A stretch of 63,013 bases of DNA, the filler included, from Kipferlia bialata (Eukaryota), in NCBI GenBank assembly GCA_003568945.1. It is 6 parts of 6 records of this genome, joined end to end, with 100 filler letters (N's around TTAATTAATTAA, not from the genome) between each part and the next. Parts side by side here need not be neighbours in the genome. Positions count along the whole stretch, not along the records: positions 1 to 12,975 come from BDIP01001003.1; 5 more parts are not named here. One strand, written 5' to 3'. Below the pieces are notes generated by a model. That model was not told the origin of the DNA. It did no database searches and worked only from the letters and a program-made list of their open reading frames with translations. A program made the translations under genes and the position numbers. Of this stretch, positions 1 to 29,425 are shown piece by piece; position 1 is the stretch's first letter; each line of letters starts with the position of its first letter.

Positions 1-60
1 GCTGTCTGCCAAAGTCATGGCACAGATGGAGATGGAGAAGAGAGTGGTGAGTATATATGG

Positions 61-91
<31 letters not shown>

Positions 92-3000
92 TGAGAGAGA
101 GAGGGAGAGAGAGAGTACTCTCTGCCAAGGTCATGGCACAAGTAGAGATGGAGAAGAGAGTGGTGAGTAGATATGAATAATAGTCACTGTACACGTATCA
201 GACACTTCTCTCTCTTCCTCTCCCTCTTTACTAATCACTCAGGCCCTATCCCTCCAGGAGTCAACACTGAGAGCAGCATAGTGTATAGTGCATAGTATAT
301 ATATATAGTATATATATACATATAGTTGTATAGAAAGTCTAATCCCCAGGCCCTATCCCTCCAGGAGTCAACACTGAGAGCAGAATGGGAGAGAGAAAAG
401 GAGGAAGAGAAGGAACAATGGAGCAGGGAGAGAGAGAGAGAGTGGCACACAGAGAGGGAGAGAGAGAGACAGCAGTGGGAGAAGGAGAGGGCATCGCTTG
501 TGTTGAAGTACACGGAGATTCAGGTATATATATTTATGTATATACTCCACATACTATATAGTACCATGTATAGGCTGTGTATACATGCTTGTGTTGAAGT
601 ACATGATAGAAATTCATGTTCCCATGTAATTTGTGACGTGTATTTCACTCCATCAGTAAGACAATTTGTATATGGAAACACGCCTATTGCTCTCATACAC
701 TGGTAATATCTAGTCATATGGTTGTATTGACCTATCAGAAGAGAGATACCCTTAGAGAGGCAGACACATTCATCTATACACTTGTGTGTACACTATTCTA
801 ATAATTTGTACAATCCTATATATTGACTTACCCTGAGAAGAGGCAGAGATACTCACCCTTTGTACATAGTAGTAGTATATAGTATAAGGTCAACTCTCAA
901 TAAGTATAATGTTAGTATAATGATTCTTGTATAATTCTACTATATTCTTAAGCTCTAGGAGAGAGATGCTCTGAGAGAGGCAGAGGTACTCACTCTGCAG
1001 TCCAAGCTGAGGGAGACTCAGGTATACTAGTAGCCAATATGTTCTATTTAATAGATACTTACATAGATGTATATATTAAAAGGTACACTTTGTTAGCAGG
1101 CTATGTGTTCTGTTATATATATATATCGTCACTCAACCTGCAGTCCAAGCAGAGAGAGGCTCAGGTACGCTATGTAAGTATGCTATATATACTACTGCAG
1201 GGATGTTGTATATATATACCTATATATATATATACATAGCGCCACTCACCCAGTCCAAGCTGAGCGAGGTTGAGAGGGAGAGAGAGACTGCCTGTACCCA
1301 GGTACACTCTGGCGTATATTCATCTAGTACCTGCACAGTCTACCATATACATACATACATGTGTATACCATATGTGCAGTCTGAGTACGATAAGGCTATG
1401 CAGGGAAAGATGAGAGAGGTTGAGAGAGAGAGGGAGAGAGAGTAGGCAGAGGGACTCTCCCTATGTATTTGTATACCCGTATGTGTGAACTATTCAGCAT
1501 ATACTGATGATGAGGACGGCTACATATATATTGTATATTCATATATACTGATCTCAGGCCCAGACATTGGCCCAGCAGAGCACAGAGCACGTGTCAATAC
1601 TGCAGGAAGAGGTGTGGGTATACCAAGACATGTACATATATATGAGAGAGAGAAAGAGAGAGAGAGATGGGCGTGTCAGTACTGCAGCAGGAGGTGTGTG
1701 AGTGTGTGTATATATAGATATGAGAGAGAGGGAGTATCCAGATAGGGTGTCATACCTATCTTTAGTCTTTCGGTAAAGCATTTCTCTAATATCCAGCTTA
1801 CCACTGTTGCCCAGACTGCCAGTGAGAGCCTCTAGCATATATCATGTTTATGTATGTGTATATCCTGTATATCCATTCTTCTGACCTGTAGGTAGACACC
1901 CTCTCTCAGACTGCCAGTGAGAGGGTCGAGCAGCTGTTAGTATAATCATAACTAATGTGTATACCTATATATATGGACTATACCTATACCTATATATATC
2001 CTCTATCACTATCCAATATCCAGCTTACCACTGTTGCCCAGACTGCCAGTGAGAGGGTCGAGCATATATCATGATTAAGTATGTATATATCCATTCTTCT
2101 GACCTGTAGGTAGATGCCCTCTCTCAGACTGCCAGTCTAGATGTATATACTAAGCCAAGTGTTTATATACTGGCATTTATATACCCAGTCTTCTGACTTG
2201 TAGGTTGACACCCTCTCTCAGACTGCCAGTGAGAGAGTCATTCAGCTGATAGTATAGTCATAACTGTCCAACTTAACACAATATAACTATCTCTAATATT
2301 CAGCTCAACACTGTTGCCCAGACTGCCAGTGAGAGAGTGGAGCAGGTGGTAGTTCTAAGGGAGAAGAATGAGGACTTGATGGATCAGGTGAGTTGCATTC
2401 TTTAGGTATTAGAGAGTATATATATATATAGAGAGAGAGAGAGAGTCGAGCAGGTGGTGGTGCTGAAGGAGAAGAACGATGATCTGATGGCTCAGGTAGA
2501 GTAGTACATCTACTAAATATGTATTGGTATATATACATAGAGAGAGAGAGAGAGCAGGTGGTGGTGCTCAAGGAGAAGAACGAGGACTTGATGGCACAGG
2601 TAATATAGTATATATATACTATATATAGTAATTTACGTAGGGGGAGAGAGAGAGAGAGAGTTGGCAGTGCTTAAGGAAAAGAATGAAGTTTGATGGCTCA
2701 GGAAATAGAGAATGTGTCTATAAAGCGATAGATAGAGATAGAAAGAGAGAGATAACTTAATGGTGGAGGTAATAGTGAGTATTGTGGTATATATGTTGTA
2801 TATGTATGTGAATTTGTAATATAAATAAACGGTAGTGTGTATTGCATATCTATATTTGAATTCCTCTCTTTCTCTACACCCTTATTTACACCAGATTGAC
2901 AGGCTGAGGGGCAGGGAGAGAGAGGGAAGGGTCAGACTGATAACAAGGCCAATTCCAACAGGTACTGACGCTCTTGTTATATTTATTAATTCATTCGTCT

Positions 3001-3193
3001 AATATTTGATATTAGTATTAATTAGTATTAATTGTGTGTCTCTCTCTCTTTCGTTATCAGGCGTTGACCCAAGAGCCTTTTCCCTGTTCGACATGGACCT
3101 ATCCTTTTTTCTCTCTCGGTCTCTCTCTGTCTCCACTCCTAATACTCTTATACGCAGGCGTTGACCTTAGAGGCTTCTCCCTGTGCGACATCG

Positions 3194-3225
<32 letters not shown>

Positions 3226-3337
3226 GGCTTACACTTAGGAGTAGATCTTAGAGGCTTCTCCCTGTGTGACATGGATCTGAGTGGGGCATACTTTGAAGGG
3301 GCCAGAATGGAGAGTGAGTGTAGCAGTAGTAAAGTAC

Positions 3338-3374
<37 letters not shown>

Positions 3375-3444
3375 CATGGATCTGAGTGGGGCATGCTTTG
3401 AGGGCGCAAGGATGGAGAGTGAGTGACTATATATATATACGTAC

Positions 3445-3481
<37 letters not shown>

Positions 3482-3773
3482 CATGGACCTGAGTGGGGCA
3501 TGCTTTGAGGGGGCCAGGATGGAGAGTAAGTATATACACTTAATATATATACATATATATATATATGTATAAATATATAAATAGGGAGAGAGAGAGAGAT
3601 GGACCTGAGTGGTGCATGCTTTGAGGGGGCCAGGATGGAGAGTGAGTGTATTCACTATATATACATATATATATATATGTATAAATATATAAATAGAGAG
3701 AGAAAGAGACATGGACCTGAGTGGTGCATGCTTTGAAGGGGCAAGGATGGAGAGTGAGTATATACACTATATG

Positions 3774-3816
<43 letters not shown>

Positions 3817-6246
3817 GGCTCTGACTGGGGCATGCTTTGAGGGGGCAAGGATGGAGAGTGAGTACATATGTCTAATTATTAGCATATAATATACTAACCA
3901 TATGGGCACTTGTATTGCTGGGTCTACACTTAGGGGTACCTGTCTCAGGGGTGCATCTCTCTCTCTCTCTCTCTCCCTCTCTCTCTCTCTACCTTTATGT
4001 ATATACATATCTAGTAATAGTCTAATTCCAGGCACTGACATCACCAACTCCATCATAAAGGGTGCCTCTCTCTCTCTATCTCTCTCTCTCTATATAGACT
4101 CTTACCCTAGGCACTGACCTTACTAATTCCGTACTTAGGGGTGCCTGTCTGAGTGGTGCCTCTGTGTCTCTCGTTATATATATATCTCTCTTTATATATA
4201 TGAATATGAATACTCTTACCATAGGTACTGATATATCTGGGTCCACCCTCCGAGGTGCCTGTCTCAGTGGTGCCTCTGTATAAATATATATATATATATG
4301 TCTAGATATACATACTCCAATTCCAGGTACCGACCTTTCCAACTCCATCCTTAGGGGTGCCTGTCTTAGTGGTGCCTCTGGTGTGACATGTGCCATGCTC
4401 AGAAGCATTAGAGACATGGATCTAACAGGTAAGGCATAGTATATATATATACATATACATATATATGGGTGCCTCTGGTGTGACATGTGCAATGCTCAGA
4501 AGTGTCAAGGATAGGGACTTGACAGGTATATAAGTACTATATACAGGGTATGTGTATTCATACAGTATGTATACGGGCATGGAGCAAACTCGTATTTGTA
4601 CATGCATATAACGGTATATGTGAGTCTAGAGACAATCCTGACATCAGGCGTCGACCTGTCCGGTCTCAACCTGTCCCTGTTCGACCTGTCCAACATGAAC
4701 ATGAGGGGGTGTAACATGAGGTAAGGGATATAGTTTAGTATATACATAGTATATACTATGTAGTATATAGTATATATGTATGTAGTTTATATATACATGT
4801 CCCTGTTCGACCTGTCCAACATGAACATGAGGGGGTGCAACATGAGGTAACCTTTACACTATATACACTATACTCTAGGATACCATTCATCAGTATGCAT
4901 CTGTTTGACCTCAGTTGCTGCCAATCTCTCTTGGACCTCTTTCTCTCTCCATCTCTCTCTCTATACCTATATTATATGTACATTCTCTCTCACTAACCCC
5001 AGTGGCTGTGACCTGTCCAGGACCACCTCTCTCTCTCTCTATATATATATATATATTTATGTACATTCATATTTATACATACTAATCTAACATCCAGTGG
5101 CTGTGATCTCTCTAGGACTAACTTTGATGGGACAGTGCTGGCAGATGCATGCCTGGAGGGTGAGTATATATATATATATGCAAAAGTTTATGAATACATC
5201 AATATAGCCTTTGATGGCACAGCGCTAGCGGATGCATGCCTGGAGGGTGAGGAAATGTGTATGAATCTACATTTAGTGTATATTAAAGTGTGTATATACT
5301 CTATGTGTATGTATGCACATGCAAATGTGACAGTCCTGGCCGGTGCAAGCTTGGAGGGTAGGATATCTATATTTTGAGTAAGCTTACCAATGTGAAGTGA
5401 ACGGATAGTTCTCTCTTCCCCTCACTCCCAGGTGCAATTCTTCCAGACATCTCTCTCCCTCTCTCAACGCATATGTATCTGTGTTTCTACACACAACCGC
5501 TTACTCCCAGGTGCCATTCTCCCTGACCTTGAGGTCCTGCATAGGGTGAGTGTGAATATATATAGTTATGCATGTAACAATATGTATAGTAGTGCCATAT
5601 GTGTAACCAACTTCTCTCCCTCTCTCATATTCTCTATACTGCAATATTCTTACCATTAGGTCAAGCTCTCCCCTGGCCATGTCTCATTCGTCCCAGCAGG
5701 GAAGGACATACAGAGACATAGTGCGGGGACAGGTAAGTATATATATATATATACACTTACATGCATGTACGTAGGTTATAGGGGGGGAGAGAGACTTGGC
5801 AGGCACATACAGAGACACCGTGCGGGGACAGGTAGATATACATTAAATGTATACATTTACAGGAATATACGTAGGTTATAGAGGGGGAGAGAGAGAGAAG
5901 CACATACAGAAGCACAGTGCAGGGACAGGTACATACAGCCTATATGTCCTGGAGTAGATAGTGGCAGCTATATAGAGTGTACTCTCTTACATTCTCTACA
6001 CTTGTATTCTATATACTTACTCCAGGTGCCAAGAACAAGAAGCAGACTGTCAAGACCCACCTAGTCATTCCGGCCACAGAAGGTATATATACATGTATAT
6101 ATATACAGACACATAGTACCATATTATTATACATATATATAGTACATGGAGTACTTAATACAGACGGTTAAGACCCACCTTGTGATACCTGCAACAGAAG
6201 GTATATACACATATAGATGTGTATATATCATAGTCTTTCTATCTGA

Positions 6247-6289
<43 letters not shown>

Positions 6290-7258
6290 TCCTAGGCATC
6301 TCATGGACCCTCAATTCCAACTACAACTGCTGGGTCTACCTGGGGTGGCAGAAGAACTCAACAGAGGCACTATTGAAGGGTGTGCATGGGGTTGTACAGT
6401 GCACGCGGTACGTATATGGGTATCTCATGTATGGTACAGTCTGATATATGTTGGTGAACCATACACTGCAACACTCTGTTGAGTCTTGTTCTCTCTCTCT
6501 GTGCAATCATATACATGTGTATACATAGACTATACGTGTGCTTCTATATACGTTTGCCTGACGTCAGCATTGGTCGCACCGTCACTCTTAAGTCACCCTT
6601 CAGGACATTCAGGAGGTATGAGTGTACTGGTATACCCTAGAATGCTATGCTTTAATATACTTTAGTTAACTCTGTATGTCACCCTTTAGAACCTTCAAGA
6701 GGTAAGGGTGTGTATGATTCCACCATCAAATAGAACTGTGTGCCATATACTGTTGCATATGTATGAAACTATATATGCACACATATATGTATCTCTGCCT
6801 CTAACCCTAAGGGATTGTGAGCCAGGCAATTCCATACTCACTATATATGTATATGTACATATATATATATCCAGAAGTATTCTTACACCTGTGTGCATAA
6901 TTGTCGCCTGTACCTATTACACATATCCATTAACCTCTGTGTGACTGGGATCCCATCATTTCATCTATATATCATGTATAGATCGTATATATAAACATAT
7001 GTGTGTGTAACTATACGCTGTGTACATACGCTTACACCTATGCCTCTGACCCCAGGGACTGTGAGCCCGGCAAGCCCCTCAAGATTGAGATTAGGCATGT
7101 ATACAATCACACTAGATTTATTCCATCTAAGCTGCCTTGCCACTGCGCACAATATATTCTTGACTATTCCTCGCTACTTCTTTGACCTTCCTTAACCTTT
7201 CAGGGCCATTGGCGAGGTCCTCATCACCCTCGACCACATGCAGGAGGAGCCCGTTTAA
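1..7258 (+). CDS. Multi-exon gene (5' partial): Glu/Arg-rich coiled-coil region, then pentapeptide repeats, then an unassigned C-terminal domain
   Basis: Spliced reading gives ...EWEREKEEEKEQWSRERERE..., GVDLRGFSLCDMDLSGAYFEGARME (3239-3313), GTDLSNSILRGACLSGAS, GVDLSGLNLSLFDLSNMNMRGCNM and GCDLSRTNFDGTVLADACLE, which fit the A(D/N)LxX pentapeptide pattern. It ends RDCEPGKPLKIEIR|AIGEVLITLDHMQEEPV-TAA at 7256-7258. Introns carry many half-exon copies. Confidence 0.75.
1790..2701 (+). repeat. Half-exon array: five acceptor+5' halves, intact exon 2304-2387, three 3' halves
   Basis: Core CAGACTGCCAGT occurs six times; GAGAAGAA(C/T)GA..TGATGG..CAG occurs about four times. Confidence 0.9.
3061..3860 (+). 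repeat. Half-exon array: two 5' halves, intact exon 3239-3313, five 3' half+donor copies
   Basis: GA(T/C)CTGAGTGG(G/T)GCATGCTTTGA(A/G)GG.GC.AGGATGGAGA|GT is repeated, each copy preceded by (GA)n. Confidence 0.95.
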
Positions 7259-8530
7259 GGGCAGGTACAGTACAGTGTACGACTCATTGCGAATGGTGTT
7301 CAAAGTCTGATTTTCTACTTTGACTCCGTTTCGAATTTTGTACATCCATTTTGTCTGTTTTATTGTCCTGTTTTAGCGCCACTATTTGACCCAAAGAGTG
7401 AAACTCTTCTCGCAACTGAGGGGAAGAGTGTTTCAAAATCACCACTATGTATATTACTAATAGACACTCGTGTATGTTTCGCGTGAACTTGGAAAGTATG
7501 ATTCTTCAAGTGTTTGAGTAATTCTCAAACAATCTCAATGAGATTGACATACAGTTGGAGACTCCAATGGAGATCCAACTGCGTGTTGGTGTAGTTGATC
7601 AGTAATAGTTATTGAATCTTGCAAACACTATAATATCTAAGACAACAAATACGTCACATTCTCCGATACAATGTAACATATATCAATTGCAATGGGTCCA
7701 ATATGTATCAGACAATGAGAATACTAAACCTACGCGCTCCCTCTCTCTGGCTTCCGCTGTCTTTTCCTAGCCACATAACTAGACATAATCTTGGCATTAC
7801 GTAATTTACGTACGTTGTAAATATTAGTATACATCATCATCATCTCTCTCTAGCTCTCTACCACTCTATATATCACTCCCTAGAAGGGAGTCCCTACAGA
7901 GTAGAGTATCCATTGGAAAGATGACAGTATGCAGTAGGGAGAGGTTTTGTACGGAGGGAAGGGGAGAGAGGTAGCGGTTGTATAGGACTCCGATATAGAG
8001 AGAGAGGATGACGTGTCTTGGTGCAATACAAGTATTATACAACTGTCAGAGAGTCAATATGTGATAAGGTGTATTTGTGGTAGGAGAGCCCAATACTATA
8101 GTATCCATAATGAACTGGCGACGGAGCCTTGAATCCAATCACTGCATTGGACCAATAGACTCTTCATATGGTATTAGTATACTTATCCCAAATTGGGACC
8201 CAATTACAATACTACTATAGAACACATATAGTGGAGCCTCAGTATGAGTAATTACGCACACGAATCGAGATAGGACTACATCAATCTATTGACAGTCCTA
8301 TGTGACTATGTATAGCATACACATACTATGTGTGTGCTATGTGTGACACATAGTCTGAGCGTTAACCCACTAATACAATGGAAAATGACTAACCACTTCC
8401 CACAATAACCGAATACTACAAAGGAAACATGAAACACAGAAAACAAAGTTATACCAACACAGGGAAACTCAAAACGGGAACAGTGTCAACCCAACTCAAC
8501 AAAAGTCAACAAAAGTCAACCTAGGACAAC

Positions 8531-10514: not shown

Positions 10515-12902
10515 AAGTAGGCCCTGCTCATCCTGGGGTCAAAAACAAGGAAAGAAATAGAATAGGGTGTACAGGGAGACAGATACTAGCATTACACACA
10601 CAGTACACCGTAACATCGCAGCGCGAATTAGCAAAACTATAGTACACACTAGTACATTGGTTCCAACTACCTGCCTCTTCCTCTAGTCCCCTTCTCTCTC
10701 TCTCCCTCTCCCTCTGCCTCTACCTCAGGGACCACTGGCACAGAAGGGGAGGGGACGCTGGTGGTAAGTGTATATATAATATACATACAAGGTATATATA
10801 CACAATACAATAGTATATAGATGACCCGTGTACCACAGGCACTGATGGGGAGGCGATGCTAGCGTGAGAATACGCAAGAATACTTAGAATCGCTACATCT
10901 ACTCGTCGTTTGTATGTAATTGTACTTCATCAAATAATGCCCAATCACTCTTTATACATTTCTAAATAGCTAAAGGTATGTACCTAGTGTTGGGGACAGG
11001 TGAGGGTGCCTTCTTGGCTGCCTTGGTATACTCTATATATACTCACTCTATACAAGTACTTGCCATAAGTATATATATATATATTATAGTACCTAGGCAC
11101 TGGAGATGGTGCCTTCTTGGCTGCCTTGGTAAATATATATATATATATTCAAAATGCAAAAATCACTATAGTATACCCAGTTGTATATTGTAACTAGACA
11201 TATAGTAGTATAGTAGTATACCTCGTGGGCACGGGTGATGGTGCCTTCTTGGCTGCCTTGGTTATATACACTCTCTCTCTATATATATACGCTCTCTCTA
11301 TATATATATACTTGCCGTGAGTATATATATAAGTACAGTACCTAGGCATGGGAGATGGTGCCTTCTTGGCTGCCTTGGTGTTCAGAGGGGACATGGGGGC
11401 ATCGGGCTCTCTGTCTAGGGGTTAAGGGTGTAGAGGGANNNNNNNNNNNNNNNNNNNNNNNNNNNNNNNNNNNNNNNNNNNNNNNNNNNNNNNGAGAGAG
11501 AGAGAGAGAGAAGAGGGGACATGGGGGCATCGGGCTCTCTGTCTAGGGATTAAGAGCGTAGAGAGAGAGAGAGAACAGTAAATCATGATTGGGGAGCATA
11601 GTATGTAAAATATATGAATATATGTACCCTGCAGGTAGTTCCACAGCTGGGGGTGCTTCCTCCTCAGGTGTATCCTCATCATGGAGGGGTATGCCTCGTG
11701 GTGGAGGCAGTCAGGGGCTGGGCAGGTACTAGTATAAGGTATGTATATGTGTATATATCTATATATATATAGAGAGAGAGAGAGTGGATTGGCAGGTACT
11801 TTGAGTGAGAGGTAGATACCACTCTATGAAGTCACAAGAGTGTATGAATACACATGTATTATATATACACTGTACACTCACTCTATGTAGTCGAAGAGGC
11901 ATATATACAATATATATACATATATACATATATAATACACTATATCAGATAGTATACAATATACACTCACTCTATGTAGTCAAAGAGTGTAAGCACACAT
12001 ATACTTATAGAGTATACTTATAGAGTACACACTATATATACACAATTCACTATAACACACTTAGAGAGAGAGAGAGAGAGAGAGAGTTAGGGATATACAT
12101 ATAGAGGCACTCCAATACACTATATACACATACTCTATGTAGTCAAAGAGTGTCCTGACTGTACTCTATATATATACACACTCCTAGCTATGGCAAGGGT
12201 ATCAAGTCATCTATACACAATATAGAACACATATACACTATATGAAAGTATATATAAACAGTGTATACACATATACACACTGGATACATACTCCATGTAG
12301 TCAAAGAGTGTCCGTGCTATGGCCAGGGCATCAAGGCATAGAGATATATATGTACTCTAACACATAGTATATACACTATATATGTATATATCTTGTGTAT
12401 ATATACACTCACTCTATGTAGTCAAACAGTGTCCGTGCTATGGCCAGGGCATCAAGGCACATATATACAATATATATACTTATATATACTCTAACACACT
12501 ATACATATACTATATATATATACACTATATGTATGTATCTAGTATATATAGTGATATACACTCACTCTATGTAGTCGAAGAGTGTACGTGCTATGGCCAG
12601 GGCATCAAGGCATATACATACACAATACACTACAGTGTATACTATACATAAGTATATATACTACATATATATACACACTATCCATACTCTATGTAGTCGA
12701 AGAGTGTCCGTGCTATGGCCAGGGCATCGAGGCATATAGATATGTATATATATACATACAGTATATATATACTACTATACACTTTATCAAACTATATATC
12801 ATATATATACTATAGTATACACTATACATACTCTATGTAGTCGAAGAGTGTCCGTGCTATGGCCAGAGCATCGAGGCACTCGGTCTCAGTGTAGGTATCG
12901 TC
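8531..12902 (-). CDS. Multi-exon hypothetical protein (5' partial), basic and low-complexity
   Basis: Exons with CCCAG acceptors and GT donors: DDTYTETECLDALAIARTLFDYIE, ...HHEAYPSMMRIHLRRKHPQLWNYLQ, ...KAAKKAPSPMP, ...KAAQRVESEPEAPR, HRPKMTATQKRRAAAQQK, and last exon RTYLADEALLIRQ...LDYERSLQ-TGA (8531-8533). No family recognised. Confidence 0.6.
11820..12902 (-). repeat. Half-exon array: about eight 3' half+donor copies downstream of the intact exon (about 12902-12830)
   Basis: Plus-strand ACTCTATGTAGTC(A/G)AAGAGTGT(CCGTGCTATGGCCAGGGCATC) recurs with AT-rich spacers. Confidence 0.95.
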
Positions 12903-12933
12903 CTGGGGTAAGATATATAGTATATATATATAT

Positions 12934-12975
<42 letters not shown>

Positions 12976-13074
12976 NNNNNNNNNNNNNNNNNNNNNNNNN
13001 NNNNNNNNNNNNNNNNNNNTTAATTAATTAANNNNNNNNNNNNNNNNNNNNNNNNNNNNNNNNNNNNNNNNNNN
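12976..13074. other. Artificial contig linker (N-run, TTAATTAATTAA, N-run)
   Basis: Six-frame stop linker at 13020-13031 inside a roughly 100-nt N block. Confidence 0.97.
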
Positions 13075-13077
13075 NGG

Positions 13078-13129
<52 letters not shown>

Positions 13130-13597
13130 GTTGGAAGGCAGTTAGTAAATACATAAGCTTATGCATTGTATATACTGTTGACCCACCTCCGAGAATCAAT
13201 GGGTCCGGGCCTGTTTCTGGCAGTGCGAGAGACGCGACAGCCTATAATTAATTGACGCAGAGACATATATATACATAGACTCAAAGGGATTGAATGGCAA
13301 CACAACAATAATACGGTTCCCTCTTCTGCTCTACACTAGTACCTGATACGTCAACAATTGCCTATAGGAATTATGATATATACACATACACCACCACCTG
13401 TATCGTAGAGCAGGAGAAAGCCCCCTCCCACCACATACACTATGAAGGCATCGCCAATCTGCTTGCCGCCAAGGGGGACACTGACCAGTTCTAATAATGG
13501 CACATCCGCAGAGGGAGGCCGCATACCGGTTATGTGCTTGGCCACCCGGGCCGTACACTCAGATTACAGATACAAGTGCTGGAAAGAGAGAGTGAGT

Positions 13598-13695
13598 TGT
13601 CTGAAGTGGGACTTGAACCCTCAATCGAGTAGCTTTGCTTCACCGTGAGATAAGCCGCTTATCATAAGCGGCTATCAAGCCGCACTGTATCAGGC
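13598..13695 (-). other. tRNA-like relic: T-arm and 3' acceptor half resembling tRNA-Leu, next to a perfect hairpin
   Basis: Minus strand GGGTTCAAGTCCCACTTCAGACA (13620-13598) resembles the B-box/3' end of eukaryotic tRNA-Leu (GGGTTCGAATCCCACTTCTGACA). I cannot fold a clean cloverleaf. Confidence 0.3.
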
Positions 13696-13900
13696 GCACA
13701 ACACAGTAAGTAGAACAAGGTGATCCACGTGCCACAACATCCTCATACGCAATTTACACACACAACACCCTCCCGAAAACACGGGAACCCTCCCAAAACA
13801 AGCACTCGGCCGAAGATTCTTCCCTCGACCGAATGACTGAAACCACTAATAGTACAACCTCACACTCTCCCAGACAATACGATACCCACATTATGGCCTG

Positions 13901-14764
13901 TCACTCCGGACAGCATACCCCATGGGACGCGAGCAGGGCCTCTAGCTGGGAGACCCTTCGGTGCAGCCGCCTGTTCTCAGACACCAACTCAGACACGCCG
14001 CTCAGGATGACCTGAGCGTGAGGCCCCAGACTCCATGTACATATGGGTACCGATATATATATATACAGACATGGATGACCTCGCCCATGTCGCACGCCCT
14101 GCTGCTCGAGGGGTTCCGGTCGCCGTAGTACACCCCCCCCTGTCCTTGCATGTGCATATGCCGGGCAGGGGACCTTCCCCCCTTGCCGTACTCGAGGGAG
14201 GATGTCCTACCCTCCTGACCCCTGTCCACAGACACCGACACCCGGTCAGACGAGAGAGAGCAGGGGGCGGGGGTGGCAGAGTTGGCGTGGGGCACAACAG
14301 CAGGAGTCACAGTAACAGTCGTCACTGGGTTGGGAGATGCTTCACGACAAATAGAACCGACCCACAAATGTATACAGTATGAATAACAAAAGATGGGTAA
14401 TACTGGCGAGGGTCAGTGTACCTGAGAACCTGCCCCTCTGATGGACATGCCCTGCCTTCCTCTCGCAGGATGAGTGTGTCTCCTTCCCCACACTGGTTGC
14501 CCTCGGGTGATCAGTGTGGGTACTTGGCATGGACACAGGGGGGCATCGGGAGGTATTGGTGGAGTGTAGCAGAACCCCCGACTCCGTGGATGCCGCTGGC
14601 ATGCCTGTGGCAGGCAGAGGCCAGAGGGGCAGGTGAGTGGAGAGATCAGGAGCCAATATCGTGGCGGGAGGGGTGACTTGGCTTCCCTGATTCCCAGAAG
14701 AAGATGTCACACTGCTAGATTGACTCCCTGAGGATATTGTGGCTTGCAAGGAAGCCTCTGGCAT
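13901..14764 (-). CDS. Three-exon Ser/Pro-rich hypothetical protein with a short C-terminal coiled coil
   Basis: Exons at about 14764-14422, 14339-14080 and 14011-13901 join in frame: MPEASLQ...RGRFS|ASPNPV...CDMGE|VILSGVSELVSENRRLHRRVSQLEALLASHGVCCPE*. The start could lie slightly upstream. Confidence 0.5.
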
Positions 14765-14959
14765 GGACCACCTTGTGAAAAGCCGGCTTTGTCAGGCTAG
14801 ACCGACCTCCATTCTGATCATCAGAGACAAAAAGCTTGAAGGGTTTGTCGAGGCAGCTGCCTGGCAATGCCAGTGGCATCATATCGGACTCACTCTCTTA
14901 CACAAGCAAAGGGGGTAACAACAACCCATCCCCCCCGCGCCACACCACGCACCTACTTG

Positions 14960-17900
14960 ATGGACTACAACGATCTAGGCCTTGACCCCTTTGATCAGGA
15001 TGGGTTCGATCAGGACGGGTTCGACGATACGTACGATGACTATCAGTACGATGACTACTCCTCGGAGGACGACCGCCTAGCTGCCCAGGACGAGGAGCAG
15101 GAGGAGGAGGAGGAGATATACACCCGCGAGAGGGAGATGCACGACCTGACCCTCGACCTTGATATGGGCCCTGTCCAGAGGTTCCGTCTGTACATCCTCG
15201 ACTTCTACTTTCTGCGGCGGTTCCTCGCTTTCTACGACCTGCCTTCAATCGCAGAGTCACTCCCCCTGGCCACGTTCTGTGATGAGATCCTGCCCTGGAT
15301 GCGGCACATGGCCCGGTCCATCGACCCCGACGCCCATGAGGGCGAGACTGCATACGAGTTTGAGGGCCTCTTCCTGAACATCCAGAGGCTCATCGACGAC
15401 AACTACGCCACGCCGGCTGACTTTGCATACGACATTCAGAGGAGGTATGTGGGGGTGGTATGGGGACGTGTTTAGTATGAGACTAGGATAGCCACCCATC
15501 TCTGACATGCCTTCCCTGCTGTGCGTATCAGCAGTGTGGGGTTGGAAGATGTCGCATATCTCTCTTAATTGTACTCTGTCTCATTTTTCAGTTCATGCAT
15601 TGTGTCTCTGGCCATGTGCTCTGTATATCCCCATCCATATCTGCATCATATCATATGAGCACCCGGCTGTATCCCTTGTCCCCTCATACTCACCCCAGGT
15701 TCATGGGCGACCCCCAGCCAACTGACAGGGAGGAGGCATACTACCTCAAGTATCTGCTGTTGGCCAGGACGCCAGAGATAGCAGCTGCCCTGCTGAAGAA
15801 GGAGGCAGACCCAGAGACAGGACTTACAGGTACATACTGATGACCTATTCATAGTAAAGTGATATGGGGCATTGGTGGGTACTGCATATGTCGTTATATA
15901 TGTGGTCATCATATATGTTGTGGCCCTTCCATATGTATATATTCTCATGGTTGTGCACTCTGCGGCTCACCCCAGGGATGGAGGTTGTGTGCGAGGGCAT
16001 CCTCCCTCTGCTGCTGTGTGCCGTTAGATCTTGTGTGGCAGACAGACCCAGGGAGCTCATCACCCGGTCAGTCCGGTCGGCCATCGAGATCTCGGCCCTT
16101 CTGCCCTCTGAGCTTGTGTCCACCTACACCCTCAGGCGCCTGGCCCTCCCTATGCTGGAGAGGGCCCTGTTCTCTAGGCAGGGCATGGACGAGGGAGAGG
16201 CGGTGGCACACCACTTCGGTCCCCCCCCTGACGACACCCCTCTCTCCTCTGATGCCGCGTCTGCCATGGGGTGGGGCGAGGGCACCCTCTTTGCGCTGTC
16301 TGGCACTGTGGAGGACTTCCTACAAGATGGGGTGGAGATGAGGGTGGGACCCTATGGGCTGGCCGAGTTTGAGATGCTACAGGTGGGGTAGGGTATTATG
16401 ATACAGGCATCGTTGTGTAATGAGACTGTCCTACCCGTCTCCCATGCATATATATCCCCCCCCCCCCTCTATATACTGACCCCCAGGCCTACCAGCTGAG
16501 GGATGACATCATGATCAGCGCCTGTGAGCTGCTAGGTGCCATTGGGAGCAGGCTCCCTGCTGCCGACCTGTGTTCCATTGTCCTACCCATCCTGGGCCGC
16601 CTGGCCACCTCCAGACCCATCAAGGATGCCGTGCTGGCCGGCTCTGACCATGTCGACGACCCTGGCCTCAGCGTCCTGCTGGACGCCCCCACGGCTGAGT
16701 CGCTCATGTTGACAGGCCGCATCGAGAAGAGTGTGTTTGTGAGGCGGGAGGCCGTGTCTTCCCTGGCCCTGCTGGCCGCCAACATCAACGTCGTCCACTC
16801 CAACAGCAACAGCGTGGGGGACGGGCCCGTGGACCTGGGCTTCCATGCCGGGGACACCACCTACCTGGACCCAGCCACCTGCTCCCTCCTGCTGCCCCTG
16901 GTCACCGAGCTGATATGCAAGGACATGAGCTGGGGCATCCGGAGGGTGGCAGTCGGGTGTCTGCCCGCCCTGGCCGGTCTGTTCCCCTTCCAGGACAGGG
17001 TCGAGCTGCTGTGCCCTGCCTTCCTGCAGATGCTCAAGGACCCCTCGGAGTGGGTGAGGCTCGAGGCCCTCAAGGTGCTGGGGGCCTTCCTCTCTAGGGT
17101 GGTGCTGGACGAGGACAGAGAGAGGGACGACAGCCTCCACCCCACCCTGGCTGGTCCATGCCACGTGTCCCCCATAGCCCCAGGGGTCCTGGGCACCTTG
17201 GCCGCCTCTCCCGTGGTGGCCCAGCTGGTTGAGGTGTTTGCCTCTGTGCACCCTGTCTGTGAGCCTTCCTATGACGATGTCATAGAAGACAGCATGAGTG
17301 ATATGTCCGACATGGACCTGCCGGACATGCCTGCCGGGCTGGAGCTGAGGGCAGAGATGTCCCACCCTGCTGGCTTAGACCCTGTGGAGGGGATGGGCGA
17401 GGACGACGCAGACACCCCCCCAGGCCTGGACGTGCCCCCTGGGATGGACACTGAGCCCATGCCCTACCCCCACATCACCCTGGAGACAGCCGAGACACAC
17501 GTGCTGGTGACTGCCCCCCTGCAGCTGTCGCAGAAGCAGAGGACCAGCAAGGAGGTGATCCTCAATGCGGCAGAGTCCTTCCCCCTGGTGCTAGCTGTGT
17601 TTGGCCACTGCACTAAGTACAAGGCCCTCCTCCTGCCCCTGTGCAAGGCATACCTCGACAGCCCCATACCCACTCTGAGGGCACCCATAGCTGGGGCCCT
17701 GGGGGAGCTACACGACGTTCTCCCCCCCGAGCGCCTCCTCGGCATTGTGTCTGCGTGTCTGTTTGACCAGGACTCTGTCATCAGATTATCCACCCTGGAG
17801 AGGCTGCACATCCTGGTGTCCAGGTCTCAGCAGGTGGCCAGGCAGATACCCTTCACGCTGCGGTCTCTGCTCTTTGTGTCTAACCAGGACATGCACCCAT

Positions 17901-18823
17901 CCTCTGTGGGAGGGGGCACGGCATACCAGTGCGGCAGCTGGCGCCTGAGACAGTCTGTGGCCGAGCACCTAGATGCCATTGTCGAGGCCAACCTCAATGC
18001 CCTGCACATCGCCAGGGACCAGATCATCCCCTACCTACACGATACCCTGGGCCCTGTGTTTGTGGTGCTGCTGAGGGACCCCGTGTCTGCTGTGAGGAAG
18101 GCAGCGGCCAAGGCTGTGGGGTGTCTGATAGCCAGACTGGCCACCCAGCACATGTCGCCCATTGACAGTGAGGTGCCTAGGGACTGCCCCCTGGCCATCG
18201 AGGGGAGGTGGGAGGCCTTTGTGCAGAGCCAGTGGGAGGGGGTCAAGGGGATAGCGGGCCCTGCCCCGACCCTTGCCGCTCTGTTCAACCTCATCAACGC
18301 CCTGGCGGTGCACCAGATGGGGGAGAGGGGCAGGGGGCATGCAGGGGGGGTGGAGCCAGACAGCGTGGAGGCAATCTCCGGCCCCCTGTGCAAGAGGGTC
18401 CTGGTGCGTGTGGTGCACTTTGCCTTGCTCAACAGCTCCACATGCGCTGCCCTCCCTCTGGTCAACGTCCTTTGCCAGCTCGTGTCCCACCCCAGCCCCA
18501 GCGTGCAGATCTCAGCCGTGCGGTGTGTGTACTCCCTGAGACTCAACCACAAGCCCATCAGCAGGCACCCCAGTGTGCTGCACGTGCTGGATGGCCTGCA
18601 GCAGAGTGAGTCTATCGAGGTGGCCAAGTTTGCGGTGGATGCGCTGAGTGTGGCCACAGGGGAGGAGGAGGAGGAGGAGGAGGAGGTTGTGCATGAAGAG
18701 GAGGAGGGCCTTGCGAGTGAGGGAGAGGGGTCTCAGTCTGAGTTTGGGAGGGACCGGATAGAGGGCAGCAGCGACTACAGCGACGAAGGCAGTGACTTCA
18801 TGACTGGGGAGTTCCCAGGTTGA
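14960..18823 (+). CDS. PPP4R1: HEAT-repeat protein, Ser/Thr protein phosphatase 4 regulatory subunit 1-like (PP2A-A/PP4R1 family)
   Basis: Exons 14960-15444, 15699-15829, 15976-16382 and 16487-18823 splice in frame. Motifs CKDMSWGIRRVAVGCL, FLQMLKDPSEWVRLEALKVLGAF, AAESFPLVLAVFG, WRLRQSVAEHL and LLRDPVSAVRKAA match remembered PP4R1 HEAT repeats (e.g. ISDPSRWVRQAAFQSLGPF). Confidence 0.75.
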
Positions 18824-19362
18824 CACCTTCACTGCCTACCCTAGGCCTGTGTCCTTCACTCCTGTGCCTCTTATGTCACCTTCTTTTGTTAGTCTCACCC
18901 CTTTATAGTGTATGTGTCTTTATTAGTTTCAACTGGTGTTCGTGAGCCAACTCTATGTGAGTCAGTTACCTTCCAGTTATTTGTTGTCGTCTGTATTTTT
19001 GTACCACTAAATTGCGAGCCATTCCGACTGTCTATTGGAGAGTATTGGTATGTGTGTCAATGTAAGAGGCAAGGTATCGTTGTGTTTGTGTTTATATTAG
19101 CACTGATCTATTCCTCGCTGCCCTCCTCAAGTAGAAGTTCTAGAAAGAGCATCAAGAAACATTAATAGTTAATATATACAAGGAACGTACATCTAGATCT
19201 TATACTCTAGAACTACTAGCTAATAATTAATGGCAGTGCGTAAGTCCCTGTCGACCAATGACGTGTAGTTTTTGCTTAGTGGGACCCTTAGATCTACGGA
19301 TTCCAAAACAAGGACGAACGACGACTGCTCCAACACCGATTCCCAACAAACTCACTCCGATT

Positions 19363-20528
19363 ATGTCCTCTGTCACACCGGTCAATGCCTTTGAGTGGAG
19401 GTATGGATGCCCGTAGTACTTTCCACTTCTTTTGTGCATTCCTGTTGAAATGTATTTCGTCCACTTCTGTGTTCTCAATGCAGCACCTTCGACCCCTCCG
19501 GCAAGACCCATGTGATGAAGAACCTGGTCAACGGGGAGTGGCACGCCACAAAGACCACCGGATCCCTTCTCAACCCTCTTACGGGCGAGGAGGATTACAT
19601 TGTGAGTTCTATTTTGCCTTGTTTTACAGCACTTGTCACGTTGCCTCCTGGCTCTACTGCGTGAATACGGCCATCAATCAGTTGTGTTCTTACCCCAGCT
19701 CTACCCCGAGACCACCATGGAGGAGGCCCAGGTCTTCGTCGAGAGCCTGAAGAAGTGTACGTGAGTTTGTCACCTCTTCACTGTAGAGCCTATTATCCAT
19801 TCCCCCTACCCCTCACGCTATAGGCCCCAAGAGTGGCCTTCACAACCCCCTCAAGAACCCCAAGAGGTACAGGGACTGGGGAGCCATCACCTTCAAGGTG
19901 GCCACCGAGATCCGCAAGCCCGAGGTCTCCGACTACTTTGCCCGTATCATACAGGCAGTCTGCCCCAAGTCATACACACAGGCCATCGGCGAGGTCAACG
20001 TCGTGGCAACCTTCCTCGAGAACTTCTGTGGTGCGTGGTCTCCCCTGCATGGCATACATATAGTTCAGCCTGTTCTTCTACTGGCAACTCGATAAACCCC
20101 AACACTCTCTTCTATGACACCACGCCGTTACTCCTCCTTGTTTTCTTTCCACTCTGACTCTTAGGAGACCAGGTCCGCTTCCTCGGTGGAGGTGAGCATG
20201 TGCCAGGTGACAGGGTCGGGCAGCAGGCTAATGGCTACAGGTGGCCCTTTGGACCAGGTGCGTCATGGTTTGTTATTGTATTATGTATATATACATCAGC
20301 CAGCTCCCCCCCCCCCCATGTCTCTCTGTCTCACCCCCAGTGGCCATTGTTGCTCCCTTCAACTTCCCCCTCGAGATCCCCGTGCTCCAGCTGATGGGTG
20401 CCCTCTACATGGGCAACAAGGTGCTGCTTAAGGCAGCCACCACCACAGCTGTTGTCATGGAGCAGTACCTGCGCCTCCTGCTCTGGGCCGGGTGCCCACA
20501 CGAGTGCCTCGACTTCATCAACACCAGG
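19363..20528 (+). CDS. ALDH12A1: Delta-1-pyrroline-5-carboxylate dehydrogenase, ALDH12 (plant-type P5CDH); 3' end lost in a gap
   Basis: Six exons give ...KNLVNGEW...PKSGLHNPLKNPKRY...DYFARIIQAVCPKSYTQAIGEV...FLENFCGDQVRFL...GQQANGYRWPFGPVAIVAPFNFPLEIPVLQLMGALYMGNKVLLK, all ALDH12-specific motifs. Confidence 0.92.
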
Positions 20529-20546
20529 GTACGACTCTCTTTTTCA

Positions 20547-20595
<49 letters not shown>

Positions 20596-20886
20596 ACCAC
20601 CGCGGGNNNNNNNNNNNNNNNNNNNNNNNNNNNNNNNNNNNNNNNNNNNNNNNNNNNNNNNNNNNNNNNNNNNNNNNNNNNNNNNNNNNNNNNNNNNNNN
20701 NNNNNNNNNNNNNNNNNNNNNNNNNNNNNNNNNNNNNNNNNNNNNNNNNNNNNNNNNNNNNNNNNNNNNNNNNNNNNNNNNNNNNNNNNNNNNNNNNNNN
20801 NNNNNNNNNNNNNNNNNNNNNNNNNNNNNNNNNNNNNNNNNNNNNNNNNNNNNNNNNNNNNNNNNNNNNNNNNNNNNNNGTGGGGT

Positions 20887-20920
<34 letters not shown>

Positions 20921-21557
20921 GTATACATCGGACTTTGAGCAACGGTGGAATCCATCTCTTACTCTGCGTGTTGGTTCAGAGAACAAATACAGTATGGAAA
21001 CGAATGGAGGAGTAGATGTAAGTGTGTGGAATACGGCACCTATGGCTGTGGAATGCATGTCAATGTATGTCTCATCTGGGATGCACTTCTTACACAGCAG
21101 AAGGTCCGGAGAGTCCGACTTGTTGGTCTGGGGGTCAGAGAGGGAGCCAGGGAAGAGACGAATAATTCAATAGTATATCAATACTGAGCCAAGCACATAT
21201 ACCCACACAACCAGTACAAATATCACGATATTACATAACATACGTACATCCTCACTGGAACGGGACACGAGACTCATTCTCGATGTGTGCTGTCAAGAGT
21301 GTGTGGGGAGTGGACAGTGAAGAGGTGAAGATGGACACATTGGTGGTCAATACTAAACCTCGGTTTTAATTGGTGTCGCTATTTAAAATCGATGTTTGTA
21401 AATTGAATATGATAAATATAGTCTCAAATCGAGGTGATCGGCCAGCCTCCCAGAACCTCTTTCCCAAACAATCCCCACCCAACATCACACACCTGCACAC
21501 ACACCTAGACCCACTTATTCCCCTGCTCACACTTGTCTGCGTATACTGCGGCGAGTG

Positions 21558-24500
21558 ATGCCTGAGCAGGGGTCCTGGGTGATAGGCAAGGGGTCGAGAC
21601 GCCGTATGCCGACCCTCACCACCTTATGCCTGCTATTTATAGCACTGCTGGTGTCTGGGGTGGCCTGTGATGCCGGAGAGATGAGAGCGAGAGAGAAGGG
21701 CCGCCAGCCCACCCATCACTCGGGACAGAGGCTGGGACCCGGGGGGGTATCCCATGAAGAGAGTGGCCTGTCCCTTGAGGACAGTATCCAGGACACCCTG
21801 GACGCCATGGACGTCAAGGCCAGAAACTAGTGAGTGCACAGTGTGTATATATGCGTGGTGTCTTTGTGTAGTGGGATATTGGGACTAGTCATTCATTCAT
21901 CTGCCTAGTCTCCCTATCCTTCAGGCTTACTCACCCCCAGCTGTAGCTACAACTACCGCATCACCTTCAACTATGCCAGGGACTCCGACCCCGACGACAC
22001 ATTCCACCCATCTAGGTAGAGGGGGGTGTGCTAAGTGTATACATATGTGTTCATACATTTGTTATGTAGTATATAGCAGCCCTCACCCTCTAAGAATGAC
22101 TACCAGTCCTCAGTATCAGCATCTGATAATAGTATATACATATGTGGATTCATACACATGTGTTATATGGTATATGGCCCCTAATGTCCAGGAATGACTA
22201 CCAGTCCTGGCAGAGCGGGTGCGGCACCTCCTCTGTCAGCTATGGACAGAGCACCACCCCCAAGCAGTACAAGGGATACTCCCCCTACTACGGCACAGTG
22301 TCCTTCAAGGTGCGGTGTATCAGTATCATAGAGAGTATGTATAGTATATATGTAGTATCATAGGTACTTATACTATGGCACAGTGTACTTCAAGGAAGGT
22401 GTGGGTAAAGGTATTGTATTCATTTGTATCCCACGTCACACACGACATCGCGACTATTTCCGTCCGTGATCTATGTGTGCACCTACCCATCTCTCACCCC
22501 AGATTGGGTGCTGGCAGTCCTACACGTCCAGCAGAGACGTCGTGTCAGCGGTATGTATTGTCAGTGTTCTCTATCTGTCCATTACAAAATGTAAATATGC
22601 ATCTTTTTACTATATAGACACATCATGCAGAGAAGTCGTGTCACCAGATACGTGTGTTGTGGTGTATGCATACACACACATATATATAGTGTTTTATCAC
22701 TATTGCAGTGTTGTATGTGCTCTGTTTTGGTCTTCCAACCATATGCCTCATAGATATATATCTATCTATATATACCCTCACCCCAGTGGTCTGTGACGCA
22801 TGAGACTGACCCCCCCACAGACCAGTATGGAGAGCTGACCCTGCCCCATGCGCTGCTCAGGATAGACAACCCGGAGGAGGAGGTGGGGGGATGCACATGT
22901 GTGTATATGCGTATATGTGTATTTATGGATAATGTAGACACCACTACTATATTGGATAGATATCCTGGAGTGGACAGGTGTGTATAGTATCGTGCACCCT
23001 CACCCCCAGACCGTGTTCCTGACCTACTCTTCTGGCTATGGGGACAACTGCACCGGCTGCAACGTGGGGGATGGGTCTACCATCAACCTATCCCTGTACA
23101 CCCCATACTCTGGCAGCACAGACTACGCAGTCACGGCCAAGGACGCGTCAGGTATGGGTGTGTATGCATTGACACACTCGGTAACTGCACCCCCCCCAAC
23201 CCCAGGCAGTGTGCTAGGTGTGTATGAGGGTGCCCTGTCTGATGAGGATGACGTCACCCTGGAGCTGTCGGGGTCCACAGCCACACTCACCGTACAAGGG
23301 GTGGCAGGGCTCGAGGTGGGGGGAGGCACAACCATACACTCATGTCTATGTATATATCCATTGTGACTGGCATAGCATACCCTCACCCCTAGGACCTCCG
23401 GATGCTTGTGCAGGACACCTCCACTGGTCTGCTAGTGGTGGAGGAGTACCTACTCGATGACTACACATGGGGGGAGGTGGGTGGCAGTTGGGGTGTAGTG
23501 TATATGTGGCAGTCAGTGTGTGTATGCTCTCTCTCCCTGACCCCCAGGACATCTCCGTCACCCTTCCCTACGACGTTGAGTACACTGTGATGGTCAGGTC
23601 ACAGACAGACACGGTCTTCACAAGGTGGGTGTGCATATGGAGACCAGAGATACACTCCCTAGACACCCCCCCCTTCCCACCTTAGGTACCAGACCGTGAC
23701 CCTAGATGAGGATGGCACCACCGTGGTGTTTGGGTCCCACCTGATAGACCTAGACAGCACAGACATGGTGCAGCCACTCAGACTCACGCTCTACAGCGAC
23801 ACTCTGCAGAGCCAGGTACAGTGTGTGTATATATATAGCTATCCCTACTGTGGGTATATGCACTGCTCACCCCTAGGTCTTTGAGCACTACTACTCTGCC
23901 GGCACCCTGCACTCTGTACCTGTCCTCGAGGGGCCATTCTTCTATGAGGTACATATGCAGTTAGTGTATGTGGTGCCTATTCGCAGATTCACCTTTGAGT
24001 GGCTGATCGTCTTTGATCAGTGTCAAGGAGTGTATTGATATGTACGTATGATCCATATCCATGGTGTAATAGGTACTATTTGGTACTTTGTCACTGTAAT
24101 GCCGCACCCACCCCAGCTGGCCTGGCTGAGTGACTCCTCTGTGGGTGAGACCATGACATACGAGTACACCCATGAGTGCTGGGACTACATGGACGGTACG
24201 CAGTGGTGGATGTGTGTGTATATGAATATAGATACTAAAGTGCATCCCCCCCCCCACCCCAGCTGCAGACTGTGCCATCACTGAGCACATGTGCCAGGTG
24301 TCCTTTGACGCATCTACCCTGGGAGTGGCTGCACCAGAGAGCATCAGTGTGCTGTACGAGGGTACGGTGGTGGAATATATATATAGCGGTGGTGATTATG
24401 GCACCCGACTCACCCTATGTGCTGTATTGGATACATTCGTATATAGTGTAAAGCCGTATATGTATGAATGCCCCCTCACCCCCTAGGCAGTGGTGTGTAT

Positions 24501-25961: not shown

Positions 25962-25993
25962 GTCAGATCGTTTATGAATAGTATATGTTTTCA

Positions 25994-26025
<32 letters not shown>

Positions 26026-26042
26026 CCCCACCCCCGCCCCCG

Positions 26043-26142
26043 NNNNNNNNNNNNNNNNNNNNNNNNNNNNNNNNNNNNNNNNNNNNTTAATTAATTAANN
26101 NNNNNNNNNNNNNNNNNNNNNNNNNNNNNNNNNNNNNNNNNN
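26043..26142. other. Artificial contig linker
   Basis: TTAATTAATTAA at 26087-26098 inside an N block. Confidence 0.97.
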
Positions 26143-26144
26143 CA

Positions 26145-26493
26145 GGGAGGGGTGCCCAGACTCACATCCTGGGACCATCCCTTGTTCAGGTGTATAGGGT
26201 GTATATAGTATAGTATATATAGTGTATATAGTATATCTAGTGGTATATATAGTGTATATATACTTATATACCTATGTGTATGTATGACCAGGGAGGGGTG
26301 CCCAGACTCAGGGCCACCCATTATTGAAGTGTGTGTGGTGTAGTATAGTGAAGATATTCTAGTACTAATGAGACCATGTTTCTCGTTCATGTAGTTCCTA
26401 GATTGTTGTGACTCATTCCTCACTTCAGGGTTGTCCTCACCCGCACTGTAGCGGGCAGTACAGTGTATACAGTATATTGACATGTGTGTATAT

Positions 26494-28311: not shown

Positions 28312-28363
<52 letters not shown>

Positions 28364-29373: not shown

Positions 29374-29425
<52 letters not shown>

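Follow-up and report, generated by a model that had tools for sequence, protein, structure and literature searches.

Half-exon arrays are real and widespread in the window, the whole stretch of 63,013 nt of Kipferlia bialata DNA analysed in this study. Partial exon copies lie in the neighbouring introns of 52 of the 81 exons surveyed, with 120 copies across seven exon chains, and these copies differ from their exons mainly at third codon positions. We give about an even chance to the explanation that short stretches spanning splice junctions were duplicated in tandem, and that the copies are likely rewritten when they exchange sequence, out of register, with working alleles that have diverged, and decay thereafter. 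The copies likely keep the protein sequence through functional alleles carried by other haplotypes, in a population that recombines and is very diverse, and not through translation of the copies themselves.

The focal exon and its intronic copy

The original prediction concerned a single exon and a copy of its 3' end in the following intron. The exon is part of chain A (positions 2–7258, + strand), the 18 exons of KIPB_004625 (P0001, partial), which encodes a pentapeptide-repeat protein. The translation of these 18 exons is exactly that of the annotated P0001, and the reading frame of the focal exon is thus known without the help of the copy. The focal exon itself (6026–6082, +) is a complete coding exon of 57 nt, phase 1 to 1, with an exact match to P0001 and 0 other letters over 6023–6080 in an RNA contig. 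Its last 40 nt (6043–6082) are the template of the intronic 3' half-exon copy (6161–6200, +; offset 118). The two 40-mers share 33 of 40 bases. Their 7 mismatches, at offsets 6, 9, 21, 24, 27, 30 and 33, are at third codon positions only, and all are synonymous, as had been claimed, with 0 amino-acid differences. Both sequences translate to QTVKTHLVIPATE, and GTATATA stands directly 3' of both.

The probability of 7 out of 7 synonymous differences is 9 × 10−5 at a dN/dS of 1 and 0.002 at a dN/dS of 0.5, which is the expectation when constraint acts on only one of two copies. The pS of this pair (0.68) is within the top four among copies of at least 8 codons. Because the pair is a hand-picked extreme, the weight is carried by the pooled test, which gives a dN/dS of 0.196 when the pair is left out (119 copies). 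The best further match of the focal 40-mer inside the window reaches 23 of 40 bases.

The intron that holds the copy (6083–6295, +; 213 nt) consists of one repeat unit of 118 nt and a core of 95 nt, and is spliced out whole in the RNA contig. The next coding exon (6296–6407, +), also supported by the RNA contig, matches KIPB_004625 of K. bialata, a free-living fornicate, at 100%. By eye, the 12 nt at 6152–6163, which end in the CAG of the focal copy, resemble the real acceptor at 6014–6025 at 10 of 12 positions. The copy ends in AAG, then GT, and this donor is intact, with a score of 10.5 that is as high as that of the real exon, without a good acceptor in front. Use of the internal CAG as acceptor would give an exon of 37 nt, and its score lies at the 2.7th percentile of the 74 real acceptors. 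In agreement with the original prediction, ordinary alternative splicing does not explain the copy, since the RNA contig skips it and the internal CAG is a weak acceptor. The focal copy may be a whole-exon duplicate minus its first 20 nt, lost between two CAGs. The acceptor score at its CAG is low (0.8), and such acceptor-like remnants are not in excess among the other copies.

Read support and splicing

A DNA contig of 1235 nt (run X1) spans positions 5072–6237 without a single differing letter or gap, at a depth of 427 (neighbours 420–487). This run is possibly the source of the assembly, and hence the match shows only that the junction occurs in reads. Run X2 was taken as RNA solely because its contig joins exons at GT..AG. 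This contig covers chain A from 4327 onwards (4327–7265), and in all 8 listed pieces it has 0 other letters relative to the real exons; minor forms are invisible in contigs. Its pieces 6023–6080 and 6298–6406 are four letters apart, so that 6082 is joined to 6296 and the focal copy is skipped. The RNA joints in copy-bearing introns (4720–5098, 5159–5511, 6082–6296 and 6615–7056) use the outermost donor and acceptor. For instance, one intron contains a 3' copy (4795–4846) followed by a 5' copy (5003–5028; together 4795–5028, +), with an inner donor and acceptor 156 nt apart, and the outermost sites are joined here as well. Likewise, two 3' half-copies of exon 5098–5159 (5209–5357, +) are skipped. 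This shows that the spliceosome ignores intact, normally spaced inner donor-acceptor pairs in the introns covered by the RNA contig. Joining of the outermost sites despite an inner pair 156 nt apart suggests exon definition, which would explain the tolerance of half-exons.

The RNA contig also contains a GC-AG intron (7095–7203), where 7092 is joined to 7202 and the GC donor follows 7094. The 74 acceptors of the seven chains have a branch-like C-T-(A/C)-A/C about 7–11 nt before the AG and a short C-rich spacer, forming a compact 3' splice site that presumably resembles those of other metamonads. Of 174 spliceosomal proteins, 87 were found in K. bialata, and candidates for snRNAs were not (PMC6679479). 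Another study reports 124,912 introns, and the word stem 'duplicat' is absent from the text examined (PMC5874029).

Arrangement of the copies

Chain A and most of chains B and E1 were taken from annotated proteins, while chains C, D1, D2 and E2 were built by hand from AG/GT sites and an open frame. The frames of chains B to E thus rest on annotation or on hand-built open chains. Every exon was aligned to both adjoining introns (162 pairs) with codon-blind scoring, at a threshold that let through 8 of 972 pairs of unrelated sequence. This gave 123 matches, from which one at 3370 (another repeat) and two at 9428 and 1407 (microsatellites) were discarded prior to any count, leaving 120. The chains were picked where repeats are visible, and copy frequencies are therefore valid for those chains only.

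The 3' halves, which include the donor, lie downstream of their exon in 66 of 66 cases, and the 5' halves, which include the acceptor, lie upstream in 45 of 45 cases; none are reversed. The remaining copies are 8 internal ones and 1 that is cut by the window edge. The splice junction is reached by 111 of the 120 copies, which means that the duplicated unit crosses the exon-intron boundary. This arrangement is the geometry of tandem duplication across one splice site, because a unit of ~105 nt composed of an exon part and the adjoining intron end places 3' halves downstream and 5' halves upstream. Copy spacing has a median of 105 nt (quartiles 97–122) without a bias towards multiples of three (44, 38, 38). 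Intron length equals 145 nt plus 103 nt per copy (r 0.92, 72 introns), and copies account for most of the intron-length variation in the studied chains. A dinucleotide run is found within 10 nt of the broken end in 46 of 111 copies, against a background of 18.5%. Arrays hold up to 5 to 8 different copies. Hence, what had been described as one pair resulting from one recent capture is actually one among 120 copies with a fixed geometry and ~105-nt spacing.

Several simple origins could be discarded. Whole-exon duplicates that were randomly truncated later are ruled out by the zero reversed arrangements, a single captured fragment covering the whole intron by the finding that 3' and 5' copies are unpaired within introns (Fisher P 0.63), and frame-preserving donor choice by the spacing without a 3n bias.

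The introns of chain A contain 35 copies (dS 0.57, dN 0.09, pS 0.40), and its RNA-supported exons have a dN/dS of 0.13. Five 3' half-copies of exon 3239–3313 lie at 3373–3857 (+). All five have Cys where the exon has Tyr, and four gametes occur in 8 of the 10 informative site pairs of this array. Upstream of exon 4327–4428, four copies of its 5' part are located at 3929–4278 (+), three with the exon start and one internal. Two 3' half-copies of exon 5660–5732 are found at 5798–5928 (+).

Chain B (KIPB_004626, P0002; 8531–12902, −), extended upstream by hand, has 22 copies with a dN/dS of 0.06, including eight copies of one exon end at 12734–11882. The annotated P0002 begins at an internal Met, and the frame is open upstream through 11728 and exon 12902–12832 without a stop (12902–11628, − strand), indicating that the annotation is probably 5'-truncated. 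Chain C (21941–22882, +) has four hand-built exons and 3 copies. Chains D1 (26555–30844, +; ten hand-built exons in one open frame) and D2 (31697–37046, +; seventeen hand-built exons in one open frame of 535 codons) have 25 and 17 copies, with dN/dS of 0.24 and 0.26, respectively. A long C run (31390–31430) lies at the frame break between D1 and D2, which probably reflects either an exon that is missing or a misjoin. Chain E2 (48065–52086, −; eleven hand-built exons) has 13 copies with a dN/dS of 0.35. Chain E1 (52263–55785, −) comprises thirteen exons encoding the C-terminal part of P0003, an FG-GAP repeat protein, and has 5 copies with a dN/dS of 0.37; these last 13 exons of P0003 were placed by hand.

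Filler is present at 12976–13075, 26043–26142, 39103–39202, 52160–52259 and 59028–59127, each time as two runs of 44 N separated by 12 nt, and the linker is identical at every point that was displayed. The first piece measures 12,975 nt, equal to the length of its contig. The window thus consists of joined contigs, genes do not cross the filler points, and the seven chains would sit on five pieces. A diagonal scan for tandem repeats yielded none passing in 12879–22093 and 22644–26425. Within these repeat-free stretches, 19500–20550 and 22787–25960 look like multi-exon genes with short introns. Copy-rich and copy-poor genes stand side by side in the window. Long intron-free reading frames occur at 16424–18823 (+; 799 codons) and 37618–38445 (−; 275 codons) in a window that is otherwise intron-dense.

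Constraint at the codon level

In the 120 copies, mismatches amount to 90/1414 (6.4%), 82/1417 (5.8%) and 281/1389 (20.2%) at codon positions 1, 2 and 3, in line with the synonymous bias of the focal pair. The pooled dS between exon and copy is 0.35 and the pooled dN is 0.066, giving a dN/dS of 0.19. Neutral decay simulated through the same detection gives 0.50–0.55 at five divergence settings, which upholds the earlier claim that neutral decay is no explanation. A neutral pseudo-exon would have a dN/dS of ~0.5 or more relative to the working exon. When the set is reduced to the copy closest to each exon side (71 copies), pS is 0.257 and pN is 0.058, with the same ratio (P 3 × 10−10 to 2 × 10−6 vs. 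0.5). The ratio varies among chains from 0.06 in B to 0.37 in E1; all seven are <0.4, with E1 and E2 on small counts. Adjacent copies compared with each other have a dN/dS of 0.27 (49 pairs; P 6 × 10−4 vs. 0.5).

Twofold third positions show 71 synonymous vs. 16 nonsynonymous changes, and fourfold sites show 56 transitions vs. 81 transversions. This synonymous excess at twofold positions, despite an excess of transversions at fourfold sites, means that the filter acts on amino acids and not on position. Tolerance of mismatches with a period of three by the recombinase alone is ruled out as well, since the changes are synonymous rather than merely periodic. Amino-acid changes in the copies are more conservative than chance would give (mean BLOSUM62 −0.09 vs. 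−0.47), and stops are fewer than expected (4 vs. 8.8). The GC3 of the copies is exon-like (0.66 vs. 0.67; intron GC 0.37), and synonymous changes are balanced in direction (89 vs. 87).

The intron flanks of the repeat units differ by 0.3–0.7 per base at bases 3–10 from the splice site, compared with 0.06 at codon positions 1–2. Beyond about 10 nt, donor-side flanks are near unrelated levels. Flank divergence was not correlated with pS (Spearman −0.22 and 0.12).

Variation along the arrays

In the 28 multi-copy arrays, pN increases from 0.060 in the nearest to 0.097 in the farthest copy (P 0.012), whereas pS, from 0.275 to 0.312, shows no significant rise (P 0.45). Since pN rises and pS does not, pS minus pN stays at 0.215. 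A constant, allele-like baseline with decay on top of it fits the arrays. Constraint is weaker on copy-private variants (0.27–0.54) than on shared or exon-private variants (0.06–0.17) in all six settings, with Fisher P of 0.001–0.045 in five of these and 0.47 in the smallest. Four gametes were found in 13 of 32 site pairs, all from two arrays, and the clustering expected of conversion tracts is marginal (P 0.048).

Within a single clonal lineage, a ratio of at least 0.5 would be expected between an exon and its non-coding copy. A toy simulation with 100 individuals and independent sites gave ratios of 0.61–0.79 in four clonal settings. Four settings with recombination or inter-homolog conversion gave 0.17–0.29 at a theta of 0.1–0.15, and ratios were 0.35–0.71 at a theta of 0.02. 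The highest pS of the recombining settings (0.247) is below the observed 0.26–0.28, and therefore exchange with diverged alleles needs an allelic synonymous diversity of at least 0.2. Metagenome scans for other strains produced 260 pattern matches, none confirmed, and a further scan produced 0.

Origin of the copies

The arrays look like the product of repeated exchange plus decay. The repeat units would arise by microhomology slips at dinucleotide runs, and half-exons alone would survive because they would have no partner splice site. Exons would be the best homology left between haplotypes. An out-of-register crossover or conversion between a copy and the working exon of another haplotype would rewrite the copy with selection-filtered sequence, and the copy would decay neutrally between exchanges. 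Synonymous distance would then approximate allelic diversity (about 0.2–0.25), and amino-acid distance would mostly reflect decay. The original prediction proposed either selection on the copy or capture from a diverged allele or paralog. Capture from a diverged allele seems to fit best; capture from a paralog is unsupported, and the case for selection on the copy itself has become weaker.

Schizophyllum commune, a hypervariable fungus, offers a parallel, with crossovers that occur preferentially in exons (PMC4209137) and a diversity of 0.20 (PMC4576712); exchange in Kipferlia needs that much or more. A synonymous diversity near 0.2 and exon-concentrated recombination are the very conditions required (PMC4209137, PMC4576712). 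In contrast to the Kipferlia arrays, these are allelic, in-register crossovers measured in crosses, and the abstracts of both papers are silent on intronic half-exon arrays (PMC4209137, PMC4576712). The examined fornicates have lost Rad51A and possess two Dmc1 paralogs, metamonads are without NHEJ, and no sexual process has been observed in Metamonada (PMC8516963). Mismatched triplets are stabilised by Dmc1 (PMC6719624). We infer a possible connection between Dmc1 and the half-exon arrays.

Exchange with diverged alleles has its weak points. No donor allele turned up in either metagenome scan. Copy-private variants are far below neutral, which could equally result from weak selection acting on the copies themselves. 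The model leaves the narrow spacing of 105 nt unexplained, and chains E1 and E2 (0.37 and 0.35; small counts) are closer to the neutral value.

The main rival, which we consider rather unlikely, is that selection acts on the copies in place. Copies would be used in frame in a minority of transcripts, through weak splice sites or a homology-guided switch between direct repeats, and this use would be visible to selection in a huge population. This would agree with the low dN/dS of copy-private variants (0.27–0.33 in most settings), with the conservative amino-acid changes and the shortage of stops, and with the copy acceptors, which are kept in 43 of 45 copies with real-like scores (median 8.9 vs. 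9.3). Rare forms would be dropped from RNA contigs. A possible in-frame GT/AG swap within 12 nt exists for at most 72 of 111 copies, the focal copy included and 10 of them exact, a number that is an upper bound because the search was loose and without a shuffled null. However, dN/dS does not depend on whether such a swap is possible (0.23 with and 0.21 without), and the focal swap sites score −6.3 and −9.6, under all 74 real sites of each kind. Splice-like sites, meaning those that equal the lowest-scoring tenth of the real ones, were found at the broken end of 3 of the 66 3' halves and of 1 of the 45 5' halves, and are thus no commoner than the background of 7–8%. Copy donors are weaker than real donors (6.0 vs. 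9.4, P 1 × 10−4), the spacing has no preference for multiples of three, and the RNA contig consists of real exons in its 8 pieces. Furthermore, a stop or frameshift occurs in 17 of 120 copies (some at alignment ends) and the splice dinucleotide is lost in 14 of 111, but the 33 disabled or internal copies keep the bias (dN/dS 0.31, P 0.005 vs. 0.5). Disabled copies do have more amino-acid changes.

An alternative explanation, unlikely in our view, might be one or a few past hybridisations, in which two diverged subgenomes were collapsed by imprecise homeologous recombination that left junction fragments, later expanded. No record standing diversity would be needed, and such events would yield synonymous-biased pairs with the same geometry. 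The observed pS, alike across copy ranks (0.26–0.33), would fit as well. Against this, three states occur in 6 of 73 variable columns of the larger arrays, 8 of 71 nearest copies are identical to their exon, synonymous distance is overdispersed (P 0.002), and dS ranges from 0.17 to 0.57 among chains. The 3' and 5' copies are unpaired within introns, and a second, diverged chain A or B protein was not found among the annotated proteins.

That diverged paralogs within the genome supplied the copies, by capture or conversion, is very improbable. Chain E1 does have a paralog, P0004 (KIPB_000156, 3414 aa), and our searches covered annotated proteins. Yet the first 1317 residues of P0004 all agree with P0003 (1317/1317), and P0004 carries 0 of the 8 amino-acid changes of the E1 copies. 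The exact P0003 sequence stands under two gene numbers, reflecting either a very recent segmental duplicate or assembly redundancy. Exon queries from chains A and B returned only their own protein among the annotated proteins (1 of 2 and 1 of 542 candidates). A search of representative proteins gave pentapeptide-repeat matches only, and among its best 150 matches only P0001's own best stretch reaches the focal exon, relatives >50% identical being hidden in such a search. In addition, several diverged paralogs would be required for each of the unrelated genes.

That the copies are neutral tandem duplicates, their bias coming from picked extremes or the detection threshold, is hardly credible. 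The focal pair is extreme, the chains were chosen by visible repeats, and E1 and E2 are nearer 0.5, but neutral decay through the same detection stays at 0.50–0.55 while all seven chains are <0.4, and the changes at twofold and transversion-rich fourfold sites argue against it. We give almost no weight to an assembly artefact that stitched diverged haplotypes or strains in tandem: the DNA run may not be independent of the assembly and contigs hide heterozygosity, but the 1235-nt contig has 0 differences at a depth like its neighbours, arrays hold up to 5 to 8 different copies, and copy starts are non-homologous to the upstream part of the exon, which would leave no shared word for a graph assembler.

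Comparison with known systems

Surveys exist of exons that are duplicated in tandem and spliced in a mutually exclusive manner (PMC9013439, PMC8373072, PMC5740500). As in mutually exclusive exons, homologous exon sequence lies in the adjoining intron, divergence is mostly synonymous, and protein-level constraint is found between copies (0.19 for exon-copy and 0.27 for copy-copy comparisons). In contrast, mutually exclusive exons have their own acceptor and donor, whereas the Kipferlia copies are halves with one splice site, never reversed and often disabled. In the RNA contig that was examined (4327–7265; minor forms invisible), no copy replaces its exon.

For potato RdRp, the gain of an intron has been ascribed to a tandem duplication that spans an intron-exon boundary, in a paper that also cites the AGGT model (PMC4974935). 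In Kipferlia, too, a tandem duplication across a splice junction inherits the parental splice signals. However, chain A gains no new intron or exon; the existing intron grows by about 103 nt per copy. The Kipferlia duplications are also recurrent over many exons, with codon-level constraint in the copies.

When tandem duplicates evolve in concert through interlocus gene conversion, their variation becomes mosaic and reticulate, and young copies are near-identical. Concerted evolution of tandem duplicates is treated in PMC3966223. The Kipferlia arrays share near-identical young copies and may share mosaic variation among neighbours, with reticulation seen in two arrays. However, clonal conversion within one lineage gives 0.6–0.8 in our simulations, and the observed 0.2 needs exchange between diverged haplotypes or selection.

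Pseudogene donor libraries for gene conversion are known from chicken immunoglobulin and trypanosome VSG genes. Similar to these libraries, partial non-expressed copies lie beside an expressed gene and keep a coding-like sequence. Such libraries feed amino-acid diversity to one locus family, whereas the Kipferlia copies are mostly protein-preserving (pN 0.06) and occur in unrelated genes.

Half-exon arrays work like tandem duplication under conversion, but on the features tested they do not qualify as mutually exclusive exons, as cases of intron gain or as neutral pseudo-exons. No published account of intronic half-exon arrays with codon-level constraint was found among the titles and abstract openings of mostly open-access papers. 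Apparently, intronic half-exon arrays are undescribed.

Implications for Kipferlia

A low dN/dS of an intronic exon copy need not imply that the copy is used. Were selection acting in place, the copies would point to a route of RNA processing that is so far undescribed; we regard it as a long shot that a non-canonical mechanism guided by homology splices or switches the halves into mRNA. If instead the copies are snapshots of alleles, a single assembly yields a testable estimate of outcrossing and diversity. Tentatively, introns built of ~105-nt junction repeats may be an archive of the alleles of other strains, written by mismatch-tolerant, Dmc1-only recombination. This possibility, which we hold to be somewhat less than even, would be proof of cryptic sex and of a synonymous diversity of at least 0.25 in a free-living metamonad, a diversity above that of any eukaryote on record in the literature examined. 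One genome would then be a record of unseen sex and extreme diversity.
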